Shown: in pieces, positions 4,623-50,966 of the stretch
Numbering within the stretch: position 1 is the stretch's first letter
Layout: each line of letters begins with the position of its first letter
Notes under the pieces: generated by a model
Seen by the model: the letters and a program-made list of their open reading frames with translations, nothing else
Database searches by the model: none
Told to the model about the DNA's origin: nothing
Made by a program: the position numbers and the translations under genes
NCBI GenBank assembly: GCA_947367565.1
Contig: CANBEI010000001.1
Span: 4,976-68,975, forward strand
Source of the DNA: an uncultured Candidatus Saccharibacteria bacterium
GTDB lineage: Bacteria > Patescibacteriota > Saccharimonadia > Saccharimonadales > Saccharimonadaceae
Length of the DNA stretch: 64,000 nt
Reading direction: 5' to 3'

Positions 4623-4937
4623 ATGAAGCACCACTGTCATTGCGGGTTAGAGAAGCATCTGGAGCGATTCCGGCTGAAGAAGTTCGGAGCGGTGGGGGTG
4701 GTTTTGATGATCTTGCATGTTTTGTTTCACGTCGTAGAGTGTCTAGTGTTGCCGGCAGCCTTGGTGGCGCTGGGTGGGCATGCAGTAGAGGAAGATGCAG
4801 CGGCAGTGAGCGAAAGTGTGATGACAGTGCCAGCCGAAGAGATTGAGCTGGCAGCAGACACCTCAAGTTTGTTAGTGGATTTTCATGAAAGTTTACAAGG
4901 TCTACGGATTTCGCTAGTCTCTGAGTTAGAGCTTTAG
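4623..4937 (+). CDS. Hypothetical small His/Cys-rich membrane protein
   Basis: 104-aa ORF MKHHCHCGLEKH... with one hydrophobic segment. TGCTATAAT (4608-4616) lies 6 nt upstream of the ATG, so the mRNA is probably leaderless. Confidence 0.45.
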   Translation: MKHHCHCGLEKHLERFRLKKFGAVGVVLMILHVLFHVVECLVLPAALVALGGHAVEEDAAAVSESVMTVPAEEIELAADTSSLLVDFHESLQGLRISLVSELEL

Positions 4938-5624
4938 CGCGGCGAGGGTAGCTTTATCTTCGGGGCTGACGCGACGTGATTCACGGGCTTTTTGGATAGC
5001 TTTGTTGTGAGTGAAAGTTGAAAGTTGGTCGCTGCGAAGATAATCTAAGGTCTCGTCGCGAAACTTCGTAAAGGCCTCGGCGACTAGCCAAGCAATCGCC
5101 ATGTTGACATAGTATTTGTCGGATTTCAAATCGTTGATAATTTGAAAGATTCGCGGTAAATACTCTGGTCGGAGAAAATGGTCCAGCATCATGACTAACA
5201 TAAAACGTTGAGGGTATTCGGCATCACCCTGCTCACTAGCGTTTTGACCGATTTCGCAGATGAATTCCCAGAGGCGCGGTAAATCTTCTACTTTTGGCTT
5301 AAAACTGGCGCAAAAACAGTCGCAGACCGCCCAGTTATTGATGCGCGGGATAAACCAAGCAACATAGTCAAGTCGTTCGGCTAATGCCATCGGCGCGGAG
5401 GCAATAATAATGCCAGTGATTAGAACTTCCTCGTAATAATAAGGCTGAATCTCATCAAGAAATTGCCAAAAATCACCTTTCGCAATTTCCTTGGCGAGCT
5501 TGCGCTGCTCGGGCATGCGCACACCAATCACATGCTCGGCCTGCGGGCAGGTCTTAAGATGAAAATTACGATAAGCAACGTCTTCTAGTTCCAGAAGACG
5601 CTCGCGCAGCTCTTCGGGGGTCAT
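4926..5624 (-). CDS. DNA alkylation repair protein (AlkD-like HEAT-repeat family)
   Basis: 232-aa ORF with RNFHLKTCPQAEHVIGVRMPEQRKLAKEI ... NNWAVCDCFC, typical of the DNA alkylation repair enzyme family. TGCTACAAT lies 7 nt upstream of the ATG. Confidence 0.75.
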   Translation of the reverse strand: MTPEELRERLLELEDVAYRNFHLKTCPQAEHVIGVRMPEQRKLAKEIAKGDFWQFLDEIQPYYYEEVLITGIIIASAPMALAERLDYVAWFIPRINNWAVCDCFCASFKPKVEDLPRLWEFICEIGQNASEQGDAEYPQRFMLVMMLDHFLRPEYLPRIFQIINDLKSDKYYVNMAIAWLVAEAFTKFRDETLDYLRSDQLSTFTHNKAIQKARESRRVSPEDKATLAALKL

Positions 5625-5649
5625 AATATATATTGTAGCACTCTATGCT

Positions 5650-6051
5650 CTACTGTCCGGAAAACGCCCAGTAAATAAACGCCCCCATAAAAGCGGCAAC
5701 AGCGACCACGGTGACACGGAAAAGTACACCGAGGAAGCCCGTAAACCAACGGCTAAATTTACGACTATCATATTCCTTGATTGCGAAACGTAGCTCGTCA
5801 TGCAACTCAGCATCTTCTCGTAGACTGCGGCGCACAACGGCAGTCACAGCGTCGGCAGCGACAACTTGGCTAGCTAAACAATCTTCGAGCGTCTTTCCGA
5901 AGCGTTCGTTACTCTTCACGCGTTTTTCAAGACGGCGCAAACGCTGTTCGAGGTCGGCAATATGACGATCCTTTTGATTAGTTTTGGTAATTTTTTCAGA
6001 CTTATCGTCGGATGACGCAGTTTTAGGGTTTTTGTCTGTTGTCTCGCTCAT
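5650..6051 (-). CDS. Hypothetical protein, coiled-coil N-part and C-terminal transmembrane helix
   Basis: 133-aa ORF. GGAGG lies about 10 nt upstream of ATG 6051. Charged N-terminus and hydrophobic C-terminus. Confidence 0.55.
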   Translation of the reverse strand: MSETTDKNPKTASSDDKSEKITKTNQKDRHIADLEQRLRRLEKRVKSNERFGKTLEDCLASQVVAADAVTAVVRRSLREDAELHDELRFAIKEYDSRKFSRWFTGFLGVLFRVTVVAVAAFMGAFIYWAFSGQ

Positions 6052-6144
6052 GGCAAGGGGCCTCCACTCTTAGTATAATATGTGTCTTGCCCAAGGACGT
6101 TTTTCCCTTTTTCTTTCCACCGGTTTTACTTATTTTAGTATAGC

Positions 6145-6411
6145 ATGAAAAAGTGGGTTGAGAGAAAAATTGAGACTAAAAATCTTCTCGACAATCCAGG
6201 GCATATGGCTTTTGTCCGTAGCGGGATTGTATATCTTGATGCTAGCGCAGTGTGGTATGTTGGTCGCTATGCTCAGCTATGGTCGCGTACGGCGAATTCA
6301 CCGAATAACGCCTATGACTTATTTATCTACACCGATAATGTCGATCCATCAGCTGGCGGTGGTCGCTACGTCGGTCGCTCCCTCCGCTGCCTCTACCCAG
6401 GTAGTGCCTAA
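6145..6411 (+). CDS. Small protein consisting of a FISUMP-type (Fibrobacter major paralogous domain) C-terminal tail module, copy S1
   Basis: 88-aa ORF: MKKWVERKIETKNLLDNPGH then MAFVRSG...LWSRTANSPNNAY...RYVGRSLRCLYPGSA. Internal ATG at 6205 starts exactly at the module. Confidence 0.5.
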   Translation: MKKWVERKIETKNLLDNPGHMAFVRSGIVYLDASAVWYVGRYAQLWSRTANSPNNAYDLFIYTDNVDPSAGGGRYVGRSLRCLYPGSA

Positions 6412-6580
6412 TGGAGGAAAAGGAAAATGAGAAATAGCTACTTTCAGGACCCGCTTGACCCGTCCCGTCGTTACGGGCGGGTCTGCGCTTCGCTCGCTTC
6501 CCCGTTGGTCGCGAAGATTCCTGAGAGTAGCTATTTCTCATCTCCATTCTTCCATTGGCTTCAGGCACGGCAGCGGAGGG
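6405..6580. repeat. Long imperfect palindrome with conserved GC-rich apical hairpin (structured element, copy A)
   Basis: Arms ATGAGAAATAGCTACTTTCAGGA (6427-6449) and TCCTGAGAGTAGCTATTTCTCAT (6519-6541) pair. Outer arms extend into the 3' ends of both convergent genes. Apical hairpin GACCCG-T-CCCGT-CGTT-ACGGG-CGGGTC lies at 6457-6483. Confidence 0.8.
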
Positions 6581-6755
6581 GGAAACCATAGTAACGACCG
6601 ACACTATTTGATGGGCCGACGCCGGTGGAATATACGCCTAAGTAACGTGCGTTAGTGGACGAGCTAGCCGTACGCGACCAATGATAGCTCCTTTCTCCAA
6701 AGTTGCTAATGTAGCCACTATCCAGATTAGTATATCCACTACGGACAAAAGCCAA
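6561..6755 (-). pseudogene. FISUMP-tail module copy S2, probably lacking a proper start
   Basis: LAFVRSGYTNLDSGYISNFGERSYHWSRTASSSTNARYLGVYSTGVGPSNSVGRYYGFPLRCRA. Upstream in frame is TAG-YYPSGATTIVQLP, where paralogue S5 has MNYYIATSGTSGATTIVQLP. Only a TTG is available as start. Confidence 0.45.
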
Positions 6756-6826
6756 TGGTAACTGTACTATGGTGGTGGCGCCGGAGGGATAATACTATAG
6801 GTTAAGGTATTATAAGATTGATATCA

Positions 6827-6929
6827 TTTTGCGACGTTAAAATTTTTAAAAAAATTTTAACGTCCGAAGCTATTCTTAACAGAGGTAGTTAGCAAAAGTT
6901 AGGTTAGAAAAATTGGATTTTTGTAAGCT
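6827..6929. repeat. 103-nt non-coding repeat R, copy 1, containing a perfect 32-nt AT-rich palindrome
   Basis: Differs at 2 of 103 positions from 41691-41793 by my manual alignment. Palindrome GACGTTAAAATTTTTAAAAAAATTTTAACGTC lies at 6833-6864. Confidence 0.9.
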
Positions 6930-6941
6930 GCGCGCCTCATG

Positions 6942-7995
6942 CTAGAGTGTTAACATGGTCCGCTCAAGCATCCGACCGAGCGCCGCTAAAGCGGTGTAGC
7001 TCGTATTCGTCGTCATGACTACCACGATGTAGCGAGCGCCATTCGGAAACTCAACCATAGCGGCATCATTATATCGTCCATCACCCCAGCCCGCCTTATC
7101 ATAGACGGCGGCCGTCGTGAATCCACTCGGCAGACCCTTGCGATAGAGGTATGGCTGATTAAGCATAGTCTCGCGAACTTTCGCCCAAGAACTGGCCGAC
7201 CAGTCTGGATGCCAATAGAGAAATTGCAAGAATAGCGACACATCATGCGCTGAGGTCATTAGACCGTCTGGCCAAGTATTTGCTAGCCCGACGCGCCGAA
7301 TCAACTGCGCAACCCGCGCAGAACGAGCCGGATCATCATACATTTTTTCTGGGCAAGGATTATTGGAGTAGCGTACCGTCACATCAAGGCATTGACCTAA
7401 GGTATATCCGTCAGTATAGGGTTGATTTGGGTCATCTAGCCCAGCATCGATTTGCGCATAAGCATCATAGAGATAGAACAATTTGTAAATTGATTTCGGG
7501 CGCATCTGCGCAGTTGAGTGATAGCTAGCAACGACTGAACCAGTATTAACATTAAAAACTTCAATTCCCACTTCACCATGCGCATAGCTTGCTAACCAAT
7601 TATCGACCGCTTCTTGCAGGGTTGAAAAAGTTTGAGGTTTAGCAAAAGTCCCAGCAAGAGACTTTTGCTCTTCCGGTATGGCAACTTGATTAATTTTGGT
7701 TAGAATCTGGGGCGCGTTAGCTCTATCGCTAATAATGGCGCCCCCCCCCCCCATTTTCTTCTCCGGCGCCACTGCGACCATCGACACCACCGATGGTAAC
7801 TGGAGCAGCCTTCGTAGCAGTAGTAATTGCCTCAAAAATGCCAAAACCCACACCGATCAAGCAACAGATAATACCAACTACGAAACAGCCAATCTGAAAG
7901 TTGCGCAGCAAAATGCCGGTTTTAGCAGTTTTGGTGCGACGTGTTTTTGGCTGGCTATCGCGTCGAGATTGTGCGCGAGCTTTTTTATTTCCCAT
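6942..7995 (-). pseudogene. Membrane-anchored serine hydrolase (class A beta-lactamase / DD-peptidase-like) split by a frameshift in a G12 tract
   Basis: ORF 7729-7995 (MGNKKARAQ..., TM helix) ends 3 codons after the tract. ORF 6942-7853 carries SIYK (SxxK), YSNN (SxN) and KAGWG (KTG-like). Removing one G joins them in frame as ...GAGEENGGGGAIISDRAN... Confidence 0.75.
7741..7752. repeat. Homopolymer C12 on plus strand (G12 in the coding strand)
   Basis: Counted directly: ggcg-cccccccccccc-atttt. Confidence 0.95.
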
Positions 7996-8079
7996 TTATT
8001 TTATTATACTACGAATATCCGTTTTAATCAAATTGGCCTACTGATGGAGTTTTTGAGGGGTTTCGCGTATAATATAGAT

Positions 8080-9150
8080 ATGGTAAAGAAGCGAGCACTG
8101 GGGTTTGGGTTAGTTGTGGCGGCGATTTTGGCGGTAGGACTTTGTTTTTGGCTGAACAGTACGCCGCAAAAGTTAAGTCGCTTAGGATATAATGCTGACG
8201 AAATTAAGGTAATCACTACACAGTTAAAACGCAGTGAGCTAGAGCCGGTTTTCGGGAGTGAATATCTGCCAGAATTGGTCCAGCTAATGAGCATGGAGGC
8301 TGCGCCGACGGATTTTCGGGTGGAAAAACTAGCAGATTATATTCAAGCGGAACAGAAATATAGTTTTTCGCCAGAGTTAATACTGAAGCTAGTTAATCAT
8401 CCGGACTACGATACGGATGAAAAATATACGGAGCAGATGATTGAAATCCTGTACGAAGAGTACTATCTGACACGAAATCAAGCACGGTATTTCGCCCTTG
8501 TATCTAGTACGGAACAAGAGTTGGAGCCGAAGCAAGTCGTAGCGCTGGTGAATGCGAACCGTGATCGTGAATATTATAGCGAGACCGAGGCAGCAAATCT
8601 TAACAATGGTGATTTGCTCTTAGTGAATAAATATTATTATCTTGACCATGATTTCACGGTAGATCTAGTCGAGCAGAGTGCGAGTTACGGGAGCATAGGG
8701 GAGCGCATGGAGCGCGAAACGTATGCAGCGTTTGAAGAGATGTTCGCGGCAGCGCAGGCAGCTGGCTATCAGTTATATGTAACCTCGGGCTATCGTGGTT
8801 ATGAGGAACAGGAGGAAGTATTCGCTAGTTATCTCGCAGAGGGCGACGAGGAACATGCTCTGAAGTACGCAGCGAAACCGGGGTATTCCGAACACCAGAC
8901 AGGTAGAGCGATTGACGTCTTCACTCCCGGGGAGACGACAAGTAGTTTCGCGAGCAGTCCGGTGGCGGCATGGCTAGCGGAGCATGCGTACGAGTATGGC
9001 TTTATTTTGCGTTATCCGGAGGGCAAAGAGGATTTGACGGGCTATAGTTATGAACCATGGCATTATCGGTATGTGGGACGCGAAGCGGCACAAGAAATCT
9101 TCCAGCGCGGAGTTACGTTGGAAGAATACGTAGCGGTTTTCGGGAAATAA
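8080..9150 (+). CDS. D-alanyl-D-alanine carboxypeptidase, VanY / peptidase M15B family, membrane-anchored
   Basis: SGYRGYEEQEEVF, SEHQTGRAIDV and EPWHYRYVG motifs. N-terminal TM helix. TATAAT 8068-8073 lies 6 nt before ATG 8080; alternative ATG at 8044. The ORF-track 5' extension back to 7696 is antisense to the neighbouring gene and is rejected. Confidence 0.8.
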   Translation: MVKKRALGFGLVVAAILAVGLCFWLNSTPQKLSRLGYNADEIKVITTQLKRSELEPVFGSEYLPELVQLMSMEAAPTDFRVEKLADYIQAEQKYSFSPELILKLVNHPDYDTDEKYTEQMIEILYEEYYLTRNQARYFALVSSTEQELEPKQVVALVNANRDREYYSETEAANLNNGDLLLVNKYYYLDHDFTVDLVEQSASYGSIGERMERETYAAFEEMFAAAQAAGYQLYVTSGYRGYEEQEEVFASYLAEGDEEHALKYAAKPGYSEHQTGRAIDVFTPGETTSSFASSPVAAWLAEHAYEYGFILRYPEGKEDLTGYSYEPWHYRYVGREAAQEIFQRGVTLEEYVAVFGK

Positions 9151-9199
9151 TGCGCGAGGGCGAAGGTGCGGAGTTCACGCCTCAACCCTCGTAGTTTTA

Positions 9200-10090
9200 C
9201 TAATCTAGCTCGACAAGTTCATATTCTTTCGACCCGAGACCAAGCCTGGCGGCCGCGTCAATAATCAGCCGACCATTCTGGCGTTCGACGCGCTCGACGA
9301 AATGGTCACGCCCAGGATCATCCGAATTCCAAATCATATCAATGCAGGCTTGATCGAGAGCAACCGGGTCGAGCGAGCCGGCAATCCCAATATCCGCCAT
9401 ACAAGGAGCCTCAGGCGTCGCGACGCAATCACAGTCGACGCTAAGATTATTAATCACGTTAATATAGACAATCGGCTTTTCTTGCTCCTTCATATAATCC
9501 GCAACCGCCGTGGCTGCCTCCGCCATTGACTCAAGAAAATCATCCTGCGGTGCAGTATGCTCCCAGAGCGTCACTACATCGCGGCTCTTCCCGGCAGTAT
9601 GAATATGGGCCTTGCCAGCCGCTGAGGCGATACCGATGGATTGATTTTTGAGCGCACCGCCGAAACCGCCCATCGGATGACCTTTGAAATGCGCAAGATT
9701 CAACATAGAATCATAATTCTCGAAGTTCTTGCCAATAATGTCGACTTCGAGGTACTTGCCATTCTTTACGGGGATTTCAATTTCGCCATCGGCATCCATA
9801 ATATCGACATCGGCAATTTCGGTGAAACCATGCTCCTTAGCAGTCTGGAGATGCGCCGTAGTATCATTACGCGCCCCTTCGTAAGCCGTGTTACACTCAA
9901 CAATCGTGCCCTTCAGCTTCTGAACTAAATCTTGAATCAACTCTGGCTTCAGATAATTCGGGTTGCCAGCTTCGCCAGTCGAAATCTTCACCGCGACCTT
10001 GCCGGGCAATGTTACGCCTAATGCCCCATAGACTCTCACCAGGCTAGCTGGTGAGATTTCGCGGGTGAAATAAACCTTACTTTTACTCAT
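9200..10090 (-). CDS. DUF362-family protein (putative Fe-S binding)
   Basis: 296-aa ORF. VAVKISTGEAGNPNYLKPELI...ECNTAY pattern typical of DUF362. AAGGAGG upstream. Confidence 0.65.
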   Translation of the reverse strand: MSKSKVYFTREISPASLVRVYGALGVTLPGKVAVKISTGEAGNPNYLKPELIQDLVQKLKGTIVECNTAYEGARNDTTAHLQTAKEHGFTEIADVDIMDADGEIEIPVKNGKYLEVDIIGKNFENYDSMLNLAHFKGHPMGGFGGALKNQSIGIASAAGKAHIHTAGKSRDVVTLWEHTAPQDDFLESMAEAATAVADYMKEQEKPIVYINVINNLSVDCDCVATPEAPCMADIGIAGSLDPVALDQACIDMIWNSDDPGRDHFVERVERQNGRLIIDAAARLGLGSKEYELVELD

Positions 10091-16955: not shown

Positions 16956-16984
16956 ATTGTAGCATACTTGGTTGTTTTTGTCAA
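16956..16984 (-). promoter_or_regulatory. Consensus promoter cassette (TTGACA-17-TGCTACAAT)
   Basis: Minus strand reads GTATTGACAAAAACAACCAAGTATGCTACAATGA. The ~120-nt leader contains the hairpin ACTTAAGGC/GCCTTAAGT. Confidence 0.7.
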
Positions 16985-17064
16985 TACTTTTTACGCTTTT
17001 TTGGGAAAATACAAGGGTTTTGTTCTGTTGTAATTATGGAAAAAGATATTATAATAGTAATAAT

Positions 17065-18411
17065 ATGGATTTTCGAGTTGAAAAAGTACTGCCGAATGGC
17101 CTGGGGCGGGTCGGAACGATACGGACGGCGCACGGTGAGATTAAAACGCCGGCGTTCATGGCGGTGGGGACGCAGGGGCATGTGCGGTTTTTGTCGGCGG
17201 AAGATTTGCGCGGCATTGGGGCGCAGGCGATGTTGTCGAATGGGTTTCATTTAAGACGGAGGAGTCATGAAATTGCTGAAGCTGGCGGGCTGGCCGAATG
17301 GAAGCCTACCGAATCATTCTCTTCGGAACACGACGTCGACTCGTCCCGTCGTCACGGGCGAGTCGCGTCTTCGTCCTCGGTCGTAACCTCCGGAGATTCC
17401 CGAAAAGAAAATTCGGTAGGCCTCCGTCCGGATAACCTGTCAGCCGAGCCTTGGCGGGGTCCGACGCTGACCGATTCGGGCGGGTTTCAGGTGATGTCGC
17501 TAGGATCAGGATTAGGCAAGGTAGTATCGATGGAGAAGGAGCGGGGCGTAGTGAATACAGCGCATAAGGAGCGGCTGGCGCAGGTACGCGAGGAAGGCGT
17601 GAGCTTTATTGATCCATTTGACCATGAGCCGGAATTCATCGGGCCGGAGGAGTCGATGCAGATTCAATGTCGGATCGGGGCGGATATTCATATGGCGTTT
17701 GATGAGCTGACGTCACTGGCGGATACTTATGAATATAATATTGAGGCAATGGAGCGGACAGAACGCTGGGCTCTCCGGAGCTTAAGAGAACATATTAAAC
17801 ATCGTGATGACCTGGGTTATCGGCAGAATTTGTACGGCGTCTTGCAGGGTGGGCGCTGGGAAGATCTCAGGCGACAGACGGCGCGAAACTTGGCAAAGAT
17901 GGAAGTCGACGGGATAGGGTTTGATGGCTTCGGGCTAGGTGGAGCGTTTCTGAAAGAAGATTTAGGGGAGATTTTGCGCTGGTGTAATGAGGAGCTACCG
18001 ATGGATAAACCGCGACATTTACTTGGATTGTCGCATCCGGATGATATTTTGATTGGGGCGGAGATGGGAGCGGATACGTTCGACTGCGTGGCACCGATGC
18101 GCGAGGCACGGCATGGAAAAATCTACACCCGCGACGGAAATTATAATTTGCGCAAAATGGCAGATTCGGGAGAAGTGTTAGAACCGGGCTGTGACTGCGC
18201 GACGTGTCGAGCGGGGTGGACGAGAGGGAGCCTTAGGGCGCTATGGCGGTCGGGCGATACGGAGAAGAAACAAAAATACTATAATCTAGCTTCAACGCAT
18301 AATTTGAGATTTATCGTGCGACTGACCGAAGAAGTGCGACAGGCGATGTTGGATGACAACTTCGCAGAATACAAGTGCGAGTTTTTGGCGCGATATTACG
18401 CTGGACGATGA
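17065..18411 (+). CDS. tgt: Queuine/preQ1 tRNA-ribosyltransferase carrying a ~48-50 codon in-frame insertion
   Basis: MDFRVEKVL...GEIKTPAFMAVGT, LTDSGGFQV and DELTS motifs. Start moved to ATG 17065, 9 nt after TATAAT. Confidence 0.9.
   Translation: MDFRVEKVLPNGLGRVGTIRTAHGEIKTPAFMAVGTQGHVRFLSAEDLRGIGAQAMLSNGFHLRRRSHEIAEAGGLAEWKPTESFSSEHDVDSSRRHGRVASSSSVVTSGDSRKENSVGLRPDNLSAEPWRGPTLTDSGGFQVMSLGSGLGKVVSMEKERGVVNTAHKERLAQVREEGVSFIDPFDHEPEFIGPEESMQIQCRIGADIHMAFDELTSLADTYEYNIEAMERTERWALRSLREHIKHRDDLGYRQNLYGVLQGGRWEDLRRQTARNLAKMEVDGIGFDGFGLGGAFLKEDLGEILRWCNEELPMDKPRHLLGLSHPDDILIGAEMGADTFDCVAPMREARHGKIYTRDGNYNLRKMADSGEVLEPGCDCATCRAGWTRGSLRALWRSGDTEKKQKYYNLASTHNLRFIVRLTEEVRQAMLDDNFAEYKCEFLARYYAGR
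17300..17425. repeat. Structured GC-rich palindromic element, copy B, in frame inside tgt
   Basis: Outer arms GGAAGCCTACCGAAT / ATTCGGTAGGCCTCC. Apical hairpin GACTCG-T-CCCGT-CGTC-ACGGG-CGAGTC at 17338-17364, homologous to 6457-6483. 126 nt, equal to 42 codons. Confidence 0.8.
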
Positions 18412-40898: not shown

Positions 40899-41159
40899 GT
40901 GCGGACTGGCTTCTTTTGCTCTAGCGCTAGGTTATGTTTGGCTTTTGTCCGTAGCGGGCATACTAATCTTACCGGCGGTGGTGTCGCCAACGTCGGTAGC
41001 AACGGCTACGACTGGTCGCGTACGGCAAATTCGTCTACCAACGCCTATCGTCTCAACTTCAACCCTACGGATCTCAATATGAATGCGACAAATCGCTACT
41101 GGGGTTTCCCCCTCCGCTGGGTTTGGCCACGGTTTGGTGCCGATCTTTCGGAAAACTGA
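40899..41159 (+). pseudogene. FISUMP-tail module copy S3, degenerate (terminal Cys lost, disrupted 5' region)
   Basis: LAFVRSGHTNLTGGGVANVGSNGYDWSRTANSSTNAYRLNFNPTDLNMNATNRYWGFPLRW (TGC to TGG). An MKKW start homologous to that of S1 lies at 40737 in another frame and terminates after 15 codons. Confidence 0.45.
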
Positions 41160-41168
41160 GTTCAGCAT

Positions 41169-41375
41169 ATGGCTTTTGTCCGTAGCGGGTATGTGAATAT
41201 TACAATCGGTCAAGCTGGTATTATTGGTGGCAATGTCTACGTTCGTTCACGTACTGCTAGCAAAGACACGAACGCTTACATCCTTGCTTCTGCGATTAGT
41301 ATGGTTTATCCATCATATAGCGATGTTCGTTTTTATGGTTTCCCCCTCCGCTGCCTCTACCCAGGTAGTGCCTAA
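41169..41375 (+). CDS. FISUMP-tail module copy S4 (68 aa)
   Basis: MAFVRSGYVNITIGQAGIIGGNVYVRSRTASKDTNAYILASAISMVYPSYSDVRFYGFPLRCLYPGSA. The last 46 nt (41344-41389) are identical to 6380-6425. Confidence 0.5.
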   Translation: MAFVRSGYVNITIGQAGIIGGNVYVRSRTASKDTNAYILASAISMVYPSYSDVRFYGFPLRCLYPGSA

Positions 41376-41659
41376 TGGAGGAAAAGGAAGTATCTGGAGA
41401 TGCTACCGGTACGGCAGCGGAGGGGGAATCCAAAATAAGGAACATCGCTACCGGATGGATTAAGACCAGTGGAGTTAATATAGAGAATATGGGTCTTAGT
41501 AGACGAGCTTGATGTACGAGACCACCAATAACCATTACTTCCGATATACCCGGCTTGATTGTAACTAAGGAATATGCCACCACTACGGACAAAAGCCAAT
41601 GGCAACTGTACTATGGTGGTGGCGCCGGAGGTGCCGGAAGTAGCAATATAATAATTCAT
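41372..41659 (-). CDS. FISUMP-tail module copy S5 (95 aa)
   Basis: MNYYIATSGTSGATTIVQLPLAFVRSGGIFLSYNQAGYIGSNGYWWSRTSSSSTKTHILYINSTGLNPSGSDVPYFGFPLRC... TATAAT lies 3 nt upstream of the ATG. Convergent with S4. Confidence 0.5.
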   Translation of the reverse strand: MNYYIATSGTSGATTIVQLPLAFVRSGGIFLSYNQAGYIGSNGYWWSRTSSSSTKTHILYINSTGLNPSGSDVPYFGFPLRCRTGSISRYFLFLH

Positions 41660-41876: not shown

Positions 41877-41913
41877 AGACCAAGAAAATGTAAAAAATAC
41901 ATTTTCTTGGTCT
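41877..41913 (-). terminator. Rho-independent terminator directly after tRNA-Leu
   Basis: 16-bp perfect stem AGACCAAGAAAATGTA/TACATTTTCTTGGTCT, followed by T-rich sequence on the minus strand. Confidence 0.85.
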
Positions 41914-41997
41914 GGTGCCCGCGACTGGATTTGAACCAGCACGCCTTGCGGCATATGCTCCTAAGGCATACGTGTATACCAATTTCACCACACGGGC
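41913..41997 (-). tRNA. tRNA-Leu (anticodon UAG), long variable arm, CCA encoded
   Basis: Minus strand reads GCCCGTGTGGTGAAATTGGTATACACGTATGCCTTAGGAGCATATGCCGCAAGGCGTGCTGGTTCAAATCCAGTCGCGGGCACCA. Acceptor stem 7 bp, anticodon loop CTTAGGA, T-loop GGTTCAAATCC. Confidence 0.9.
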
Positions 41998-50498: not shown

Positions 50499-50693
50499 TT
50501 GGCTTTTGTCCGTAGTGGATGGACTAATATTGATACTACTAATGAAGGCGCCGTGCGGGTCATTGGTCAATACGGCGACTATTGGTCGCGTACGGCTAGC
50601 TCATCTACGAACGCCTATCGTCTAATCACGAGCCCTACAGGCGTCAATTTGTCAAACAGCAGCGATCGTTGGGCTGGTCTCTCCCTACGCTAA
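50499..50693 (+). pseudogene. FISUMP-tail module copy S6 with premature stop replacing the conserved Cys codon
   Basis: (TTG)AFVRSGWTNIDTTNEGAVRVIGQYGDYWSRTASSSTNAYRLITSPTGVNLSNSSDRWAGLSLR-stop. CGC TAA CTC CAC CCA aligns with CGC TGC CTC TAC CCA of S1/S4. Terminator at about 50722-50748. Confidence 0.45.
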
Positions 50694-50948
50694 CTCCACC
50701 CAGAACCCAAAAAATCGCCCATAGCATGGCGACTTTTTGAACATATAAGCTCTCAACTTATCGTTGGCTCGCAGTTAGCCTTATGTTCTTTCGAACTGTT
50801 ACTAGTATACTTGACTCGCGTAGAAATAGCAAGGATTTTCGAGGATTTTTGCTGACTATTTTTCATGTATTTTTTACAACATTATGCCATATCCCCTCTG
50901 TTATTGCTGTGGAAATGTATGTTGTTACAATTACAACATTTCGTCACC

Positions 50949-50966
50949 GGCTTTTGTCCGTAGTGG
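50949..50966 (+). repeat. Isolated 5' anchor block of the module family (fragment S7)
   Basis: GGCTTTTGTCCGTAGTGG is identical to the 5' block of the other copies, but no module follows. Confidence 0.6.

Follow-up and report, generated by a model that had tools for sequence, protein, structure and literature searches.

Between two convergent small genes of a Saccharibacterium, at positions 6405-6580 of the 64,000-nt stretch of DNA analyzed here (the window), lies a long palindrome that has no counterpart of similar length at a paralogous junction of the same window. An earlier note on this DNA regarded it as the outcome of an insertion or a duplication-inversion event at the apex of a hairpin. 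The question raised by this locus is whether the palindrome (copy A) is a discrete piece of inserted DNA and, if it is, what kind of element was inserted and what happened to the two genes that end there. We consider it probable that copy A is a small, non-autonomous, structured palindromic repeat that was inserted in the compact junction of two convergent paralogs. The coordinates of its parts and of the neighboring features are collected in Table 1.

Table 1. Positions of copy A, its parts, the flanking genes and the related loci in the window
Feature	Positions	Strand	Description
Left convergent small paralog gene	6145-6411	+	88 aa, ends ...RSLRCLYPGSA; stop TAA 6409-6411 is ancestral
Conserved 3′ module of the paralog family	6380-6425	+	PLRCLYPGSA* plus TGGAGGAAAAGGAA; identical to 41344-41389
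Left arm of long stem P1	6420-6449	+	Inner 8 nt TTTCAGGA (6442-6449) common to other copies; outer part locus-specific
Insert	6426-6566	+	141 nt, element with arms plus inverted left-flank copy; missing from compact junctions (alignment with L141 and L135)
Unit, inner P1 plus three-way-junction core	6442-6524	+	About 83 nt; 97.6-98.8% identity with the non-orthologous L072 copy
Hairpin P2	6452-6487	+	Invariant top CGTCCCGTCGTTACGGGCG at 6461-6479; bulged T, CGTT loop
Hairpin P3	6488-6515	+	Outer helix CTTCGC/GCGAAG; invariant CGT in apical loop, 6503-6505
Right arm of P1	6519-6548	+	
Imperfect inverted copy of left host flank (6404-6426)	6542-6568	+	Without counterpart in compact junctions
Right convergent small paralog gene	6561-6755	-	64 aa from TTG, ends ...GFPLRCRA; stop TGA is the complement of 6561-6563
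CCCTCCGCTGCC, PLRC codons of the minus gene	6569-6580	-	Inverted partner of 6380-6391; the pair closes the element's loop
Copy B, in-frame insert of 37-38 codons in tgt	17314-17424	+	Model match 17316-17411, 85.6 bits
Locus 2, paralogous convergent junction without element	41344-41428	.	19 nt longer than compact junctions

Insertion of copy A in a compact junction

Pairwise alignment of the two paralogous loci in the window showed 100% identity between 6380-6425 and 41344-41389, and this identity stopped at 6425, exactly where the earlier note had placed the end of the common sequence. Homology with locus 2 on the right-hand side returned at 6567-6584, which corresponds to 41411-41428. The segment of locus 1 without a counterpart in locus 2 was larger than the approximately 115 nt first proposed: 141 nt (6426-6566) face 21 nt in locus 2. 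Furthermore, the convergent genes of locus 2, which had been described as separated by a short hairpin, overlap by 4 nt (ORFs 41169-41375 on the plus strand and 41372-41659 on the minus strand).

Many paralogous small genes have the shared left flank as their invariant 3′ end (...PLRCLYPGSA*, TGGAGGAARAGGAAG), and a metagenome scan with this flank as the query yielded 20 contigs. Comparison with metagenome variants that lack the insert was carried out on the compact junctions L134, L135 and L141, in which GGAGGAARAGGRAGT, ending in ...GGAAGT, is joined directly to ACGGCAGCGG (the right side is also given as ACGGCAGCGGAGGGGG). In the window and in L010, L058 and L136, about 140 extra nt are found exactly at the point of this joint. 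L010 and L058 are GTDB species representatives, and copy A is common to at least three species-level genomes. Compared to junctions of the same gene family that are free of the element, copy A is a discrete insertion with sharp boundaries. Locus 2 had been taken as the empty site, but the three compact junctions are cleaner representatives of this state, as locus 2 contains 19 extra nt. Local alignment of this extra segment (19 nt relative to the compact junctions, or the 21-nt segment) with the element gave p = 0.07, which is not significant, and the segment is not established as the footprint of a lost element.

The insertion point is found at the 3′ edge of a loop of about 40 nt closed by the convergent PLRC codons (6380-6391/6569-6580; CCCTCCGCTGCC/GGCAGCGGAGGG in locus 1), and not at the apex of the short locus-2 hairpin. 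Of the event that was first envisaged, the part that stands is a discrete insertion accompanied by an inverted left flank, while the part that falls is its position at the hairpin apex. No direct target-site duplication was detected when filled and empty junctions of copy A or of copy B, the second copy in the window, were compared. In both copies, one flank is duplicated in inverted rather than direct orientation.

The insertion affected the ends of the two genes in different ways. The plus-gene stop codon TAA (6409-6411) lies within the sequence shared with element-free junctions, and this ancestral codon is now paired in the stem because of the inverted copy of the left flank (6542-6568). 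The minus-gene stop codon TGA (6561-6563) is located in the inserted DNA, where it was supplied by the same inverted flank copy; 4 nt separate it from the minimum-energy stem of the RNA, and in the DNA fold it is found at the stem edge. In element-free junctions, the minus homologue continues as ...RCRT(G/P)S...FLH* and its TAG overlaps the TAA of the plus gene, whereas the minus gene in the window is shortened to ...RCRA* and has lost a tail of 12 codons. The proposal that the palindrome supplies the stop codons of both genes thus applies to the TGA of the minus gene but not to the TAA of the plus gene, which the element-free junctions identify as ancestral. The copy-A locus provides an example of an insertion that rewrites a gene end, with a new stop codon and the removal of a 12-codon tail.

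The two genes had been labeled lectin-tail genes. No match to Pfam or NCBIfam was obtained for five flanking small ORFs, and no relevant match to PDB profiles was found; database homologues of the small paralogs are proteins of 75-163 aa without a Pfam domain, and the AlphaFold2 model of a flanking small protein had a pLDDT of 43. Members of this small paralog family in the window are located at 6145-6411 (+), 6561-6755 (-), 40899-41159 (+), 41169-41375 (+), 41372-41659 (-) and 50499-50693 (+), with a fragment near 50944-50966. In these genes, the N-terminal part (..SGTTGATTIVQLPLAFVRSG) and the end (GFPLRCLYPGSA*) are invariant, the stretch of about 55 aa between them is variable and an identical 3′ flank follows, and the 46 nt at 6380-6425 and 41344-41389 are identical despite the differing coding sequence upstream. 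Judged from sequence, this layout resembles that of variable cassettes whose ends are kept uniform by conversion. A tRNA-Leu gene (41913-41997, minus strand) is situated directly downstream of locus 2.

Structure and distribution of the repeat family

The arms, core and fold of copy A were as originally described. The arms at 6427-6449 and 6519-6541 are complementary at 22 of 23 positions, and the extended arms (6420-6449/6519-6548, 30 nt each) are 87% complementary and enclose 69 nt. The similarity of the arms is real beyond these limits as well (GTGCCTAATGGAGGAA... on the plus strand versus GTGCCTGAAGCCAATGGAAGAA... on the minus strand), and the palindrome reaches outward to 6404/6568. Folding of the 6405-6580 region gave a branched hairpin spanning 6408-6557. 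Its stability relative to dinucleotide-shuffled sequences is high: the plus-strand RNA has an energy of -92.1 kcal/mol compared to -56.6 +/- 4.0 in the shuffles (z -9.0, 0/200), the minus-strand RNA has a z of -7.4, and calculation with DNA parameters gave -52.6 compared to -25.1 in the shuffles (z -8.3).

An ORF of 54 aa (6427-6591, plus strand) begins with the first left-arm base, 9 nt past a GGAGG, and reads copy A in a frame that is also used by tgt. It was rejected as a conserved gene, a 1-nt indel in P3 producing a frameshift in L010 and L058, and from these sequences it is probably not a gene.

The apical-hairpin motif CGTCCCGTCGTNACGGGCG, with 18 specified bases, was scanned over one genome per GTDB species and was found at 115 or more loci. 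About 48 among them belong to MAGs of Saccharibacteria recovered from mouse, ruminant and other samples, and all of these copies share the same architecture; the remaining matches, in high-G+C taxa, lack the architecture and were dismissed as chance. A covariance model (R1) was run on the window and on 433 kb of Saccharibacteria DNA composed of 8-kb loci. It matched 65 copies in this DNA, as many as 4 of them within 8 kb, which gives a density on the order of 40 copies per Mb when the seed copy of each locus is discounted. Exactly two copies were found in the window, copy A (6437-6532, 77 bits, E about 4e-20) and copy B (17316-17411, 85.6 bits), in which the apical hairpin is seen again at 17338-17364 with a compensatory change.

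The conserved unit is about 85 nt long and folds as a three-way junction with an inner stem of 8-10 bp and two hairpins; together with the arms, its length is about 110-190 nt. Stem P1 has a median length of 24.5 bp (interquartile range 21-35, maximum about 55), but only its inner 8-10 bp are conserved, and these only in part (TTTCRGGA/TCCYGAAA), while farther out, over 15-45 bp, the arms of different copies are unrelated. Hairpin P2 is composed of a covarying base and an invariant top, CG-U-CCCGU-CGUY-ACGGG-CG. Hairpin P3 consists of an outer helix that covaries and a small hairpin at the apex with CGU always in the loop.

Strong covariation was seen in the model-fitted alignment, in which 91.2% of the cells are paired compared to 66.7% in column shuffles and 41-50% with slid partners, and in which 425 cells are changed on both sides compared to 129 in the shuffles. 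The two mismatch types are unequally tolerated in the core helices, with 30 G.U versus 4 A.C (20 versus 0 in P3 alone), and nearly equally in P1, with 41 G.U versus 32 A.C; the core of the 16 copies antisense to a host gene has 10 G.U versus 0 A.C, all these counts being read from a model-fitted alignment that itself favors G.U. Since the G.U bias of the core is kept in the antisense copies, the selected fold is that of the element's own strand and not that of the host mRNA. These results suggested that a folded single strand is what matters. Folding energies of the whole element, unlike the pair-level counts in which the core prefers sense, slightly favor the antisense strand, a difference that may result from tetraloop bonuses and flanks.

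Further searches of databases and of the literature gave little. A collection of phage genomes searched in distant mode contained no match to the element, searches with the element-encoded peptide were uninformative, with no candidates from a word index and a single match from an exhaustive HMMER search, and the literature searched on palindromic, MITE or selfish repeats of Saccharibacteria or Patescibacteria yielded only CRISPR or unrelated matches. The repeat family is apparently undescribed so far.

The earlier statement that the element resides in coding as well as non-coding DNA was borne out by the wider set. Among the 65 copies, 24 (about 37%) lie in frame inside long ORFs, with the frame open throughout the element, and the others sit in spacers between adjacent genes. 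The intragenic copies are sense to the host gene in 8 cases and antisense in 16, and four frames (S0, S2, A1 and A2) are used in the hosts. Pfam identified TsaD, QueA, TatD, AlaRS, TrmD, PriA, TypA/BipA and MnmA as hosts, and LeuRS, IleRS and others were recognized by eye. In silico excision of the element joined long ORFs in 8 cases, which at first appeared to be genes split by an insertion; on inspection all were adjacent genes, for example, IscS and MnmA, or the end of RpoD. The element probably behaves as selfish DNA in that its copies persist where they are harmless, either in spacers or, in either orientation, in frame at surface-tolerant sites of housekeeping proteins.

Copy B illustrates the behavior of the element inside a gene. 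At 17411-17424, its right outer arm repeats the host left flank (17300-17313) in inverted orientation. Three forms of the protein were distinguished among tgt orthologues: 400 aa without an insert, about 410 aa with ...WSPE/RADN..., and 448-457 aa with the element, which is present in one of two frames or inverted. The same site is read as SRRHGRV, as RPVVTG or from the antisense strand among orthologues. In the comparison of tgt of the window (16972-18411) with the orthologues P0065, P0076 and P0003, even the element-free Saccharibacteria protein of about 410 aa has 10 extra residues (WSPE RADNQVNEP) at the loop compared to the 400-aa form (LATG), and an older insertion into this hot spot could have left these residues behind.

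Comparison of copies between loci provided a view of how core and arms change. Non-orthologous copies have only 76-87 nt in common, with 94-98% identity, and their arms are unrelated. The L072 core is 98% identical to that of copy A, and L009 and L101 hold another core subtype; the copies L072:3558-3652, L009:2239-2334 and L101:4001-4096 lie at orthologous positions between genes, and their flanks and arms are homologous. In L120:750-845, which is in tgt of the MAG CAYXCA01, the core is inverted at the same codon position as in the window (17316-17411), and the outer arms are homologous to the tgt arms of the window with differences that are paired (compensatory) and synonymous. Read from these alignments, L072 and L120 appear to show that a core can be exchanged or turned around while its arms persist. 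L121 is a derivative with one arm left, and L015 and L041, from one genome, have unit and arms in common but different flanks. In L136, a contig of ERZ778515 that carries the copy-A orthologue, a second and different palindromic insert of about 80 nt is nested in P3 from about position 288, beside a hairpin loop.

Origin of copy A and competing explanations

If copy A is an inserted repeat, as we consider probable, it would belong to a family that is abundant in gut and rumen Saccharibacteria and in which a long locus-specific stem carries the 85-nt unit at its tip. At copy A, this stem would have been formed from the element's own arms and the inverted duplicate of the left host flank, with two consequences: the original stop codon of the plus gene would have joined the stem, and the minus gene would have exchanged its 12-codon tail for a stop at the TGA in the inserted DNA. 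The family would be selfish DNA that persists at harmless sites. Its core may serve as the recognition site of a propagation machinery, either in folded single-stranded DNA or in the element's own transcript, and the complementarity of the arms may be kept by intra-palindrome template switching or by conversion. Cores would be exchangeable between loci, and the locus-specific arms may arise from fold-back copying of the target flank at insertion or from ectopic conversion of cores. The copy-A hairpin could, in addition, act as a bidirectional transcription barrier or as a stabilizer of RNA ends.

Several points weigh on the other side. Inspection of the ORFs near the copies identified no transposase, reverse transcriptase or other mobilizing gene, no autonomous relative was found, and no recent insertion polymorphism was seen within one species. 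Copy A being common to at least three species-level genomes, mobility at the present day is only putative. Furthermore, an invariant, covarying core would be expected of a functional RNA and not of decaying selfish DNA, and it counts against the mobile-element reading. The sharp boundary of similarity at 85 nt can be explained by ectopic conversion instead of transposition.

The element could be a structured RNA that serves the host as a cis terminator, as an RNase III processing or stability module or as a multicopy small RNA, with its spread being secondary. Under such a reading, which we regard as unlikely, 6405-6580 would be a bidirectional terminator of the two convergent genes. The strong covariation with an invariant hairpin, the strand-specific tolerance of G.U, the very stable fold on both strands, the U-rich run that follows the copy-A stem on the minus strand (AUUUUCCUUUUCC) and the retention of copy A in three or more species all favor a functional RNA. 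However, the 37% of copies in housekeeping ORFs, two thirds of which are antisense to the host mRNA, are difficult to reconcile with it, and so is a core strand preference that ignores the direction of host transcription. Intergenic copies flanked by ORFs of at least 90 aa are tandem in 16, convergent in 9 and divergent in 9 cases, and with the crude ORF calling used no clear bias toward gene 3′ ends was seen. An intrinsic terminator has a short G+C-rich stem and a small loop followed by a T run, unlike copy A, which is a branched hairpin of 150 nt, and a consensus scan for rho-independent terminators found no site in 6000-7000. Rfam 15 identified only tRNA in the whole window at the gathering threshold and nothing in 6300-6700 even at E <= 10.

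A second alternative places the function in the flanking genes, the palindrome being a cruciform or recombination site for inversion or conversion between convergent cassettes. The element does lie exactly between two inverted cassettes with invariant ends, a different variable region is found beside the same element in L058, and long inverted repeats recombine, as the inverted core of L120 exemplifies. This alternative is nevertheless very improbable, as most junctions of the gene family are without the element and only 4 of the 65 copies (window, L010, L058 and one truncated copy, all of them copy-A matches) adjoin these genes. The other 61 copies are elsewhere, 24 of them in tRNA-modification, tRNA-synthetase and other housekeeping genes, and inspection of the ORFs of 4900-9200 revealed no recombinase.

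It is also highly doubtful that the long palindrome is the original form and that locus 2 and the compact junctions are its deletion derivatives. Derivatives of this kind exist, as L121 with its single arm demonstrates, and the 21-nt segment of locus 2 weakly resembles an arm, but the p value of 0.07 given above deprives that resemblance of significance. Several independent paralogous junctions are equally compact, including their overlapping stops CTAA/TTAG, and the extra DNA belongs to a dispersed family with other copies at unrelated places.

Finally, we give very little credence to an intervening sequence that is removed from RNA, either intron-like or by RNase III plus a ligase, with the in-frame state incidental: P1 joins both borders in either orientation and the core is structured, but the frame is open through the whole element in every intragenic copy, orthologues use different and always open frames at the same site, and in no case is a gene split by a copy that breaks its frame or introduces stops. 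The last point speaks against removal in the manner of an intron and for the insert being translated.

Comparison with known repeat systems

The Rickettsia palindromic elements (RPEs) are repeats of about 100-150 bp that are scattered in tens of copies through a small, host-dependent genome and are able to fold into a long hairpin; close to half of the copies are located in unrelated housekeeping ORFs as tolerated in-frame fusions (PMC10969869). The present family is likewise a dispersed palindromic repeat, with 65 copies in 433 kb and about 110-190 nt for unit and arms, and 24 of the 65 are in frame in unrelated housekeeping ORFs, with tgt alleles with and without the insert. It differs from RPEs, with which it was compared by description only, in three respects. 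First, its hosts are Saccharibacteria, which as Patescibacteria belong to another phylum. Second, each RPE family has one conserved peptide, whereas four frames on both strands are used here. Third, what is conserved here is a non-palindromic, covarying three-way-junction core with an invariant hairpin, the long arms being locus-specific.

Bacterial MITEs such as Correia, ERIC, RUP and BOX are short, non-autonomous, multicopy and foldable, lie between and sometimes within genes and can give terminators or stop codons to neighboring genes. Their defining traits are terminal inverted repeats that are conserved, target-site duplications in direct orientation and a cognate IS. The element resembles them in being short, non-autonomous, multicopy, foldable and located between and within genes. 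However, its inner stem of 8-10 bp is only semi-conserved and its outer arms are unrelated between copies, and copies A and B are accompanied by an inverted flank copy instead of a direct duplication. To our knowledge, no IS partner of the Saccharibacteria element has been described. The behavior of the family is closest to that of RPEs and MITEs, and its in-frame occurrence in housekeeping genes corresponds to the hallmark of RPEs; the element lacks the direct duplications of MITEs and the one conserved peptide of RPEs, and it appears to lack the conserved termini of MITEs.

The substrates of HUH transposases and of integron integrases are recognized by a strand-specific fold in which a conserved hairpin has a bulged base. 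A strand-specific imperfect hairpin is a likeness to REP/BIME with RAYT, to IS200/IS605 ends, to PATEs and to attC, given the bulged U of P2 and the core G.U:A.C ratio of 30:4. In the 64-kb window and the 8-kb loci, neither a Y1/HUH transposase nor an integrase could be connected with the element. Furthermore, REPs are extragenic and 37% of the copies here are intragenic, attC conserves the stem ends and varies the tip while the element does the reverse, and none of the REP/BIME, IS200/IS605, PATE and attC systems is known to build long locus-specific arms.

Tentatively, these features could point to a new class of mobile element. In its active form the element would be single-stranded and folded, with a putative protein reading the three-way-junction core and its two CGU loops. 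Hairpin loops or their vicinity would be its integration sites, and its arms would be built or replaced as the target flank is copied by fold-back. Such a class, if real, would explain the locus-specific arms, the core swap in L072, the insertion nested at a loop in L136 and the inverted flank duplications. An element of this kind would keep adding segments of 35-50 residues to the essential proteins encoded by an ultra-small genome.

The genomes of Saccharibacteria and other CPR bacteria are tiny and are thought to contain few repeats, and a family at roughly 40 copies per Mb is of interest for this reason. The in-frame copies in tgt, tsaD, tRNA synthetases, priA and similar genes would represent a second, independent case of the selfish coding DNA of Rickettsia. 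The family would be a source of lineage-specific protein insertions and, at the same time, a practical hazard for annotation and for the alignment of marker genes. With its covarying strand-specific core, arms that differ between loci, inversion and swapping of cores and inverted duplication of flanks, it offers a tractable system for studies of how palindromic repeats spread and are maintained.

Quasipalindrome correction by fold-back template switching is a general mechanism of replication error and not an element family. Inferred from the sequences of the arms, template switching would explain why these drift and yet remain complementary, the near parity of G.T and A.C in P1 and the outward growth of the palindrome through an inverted flank. 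The ancestral flank could be inferred for copy A, for copy B and for the TsaD copy of L095, and in these three cases the additional inverted flank is located on the 3′ side of the element's strand.
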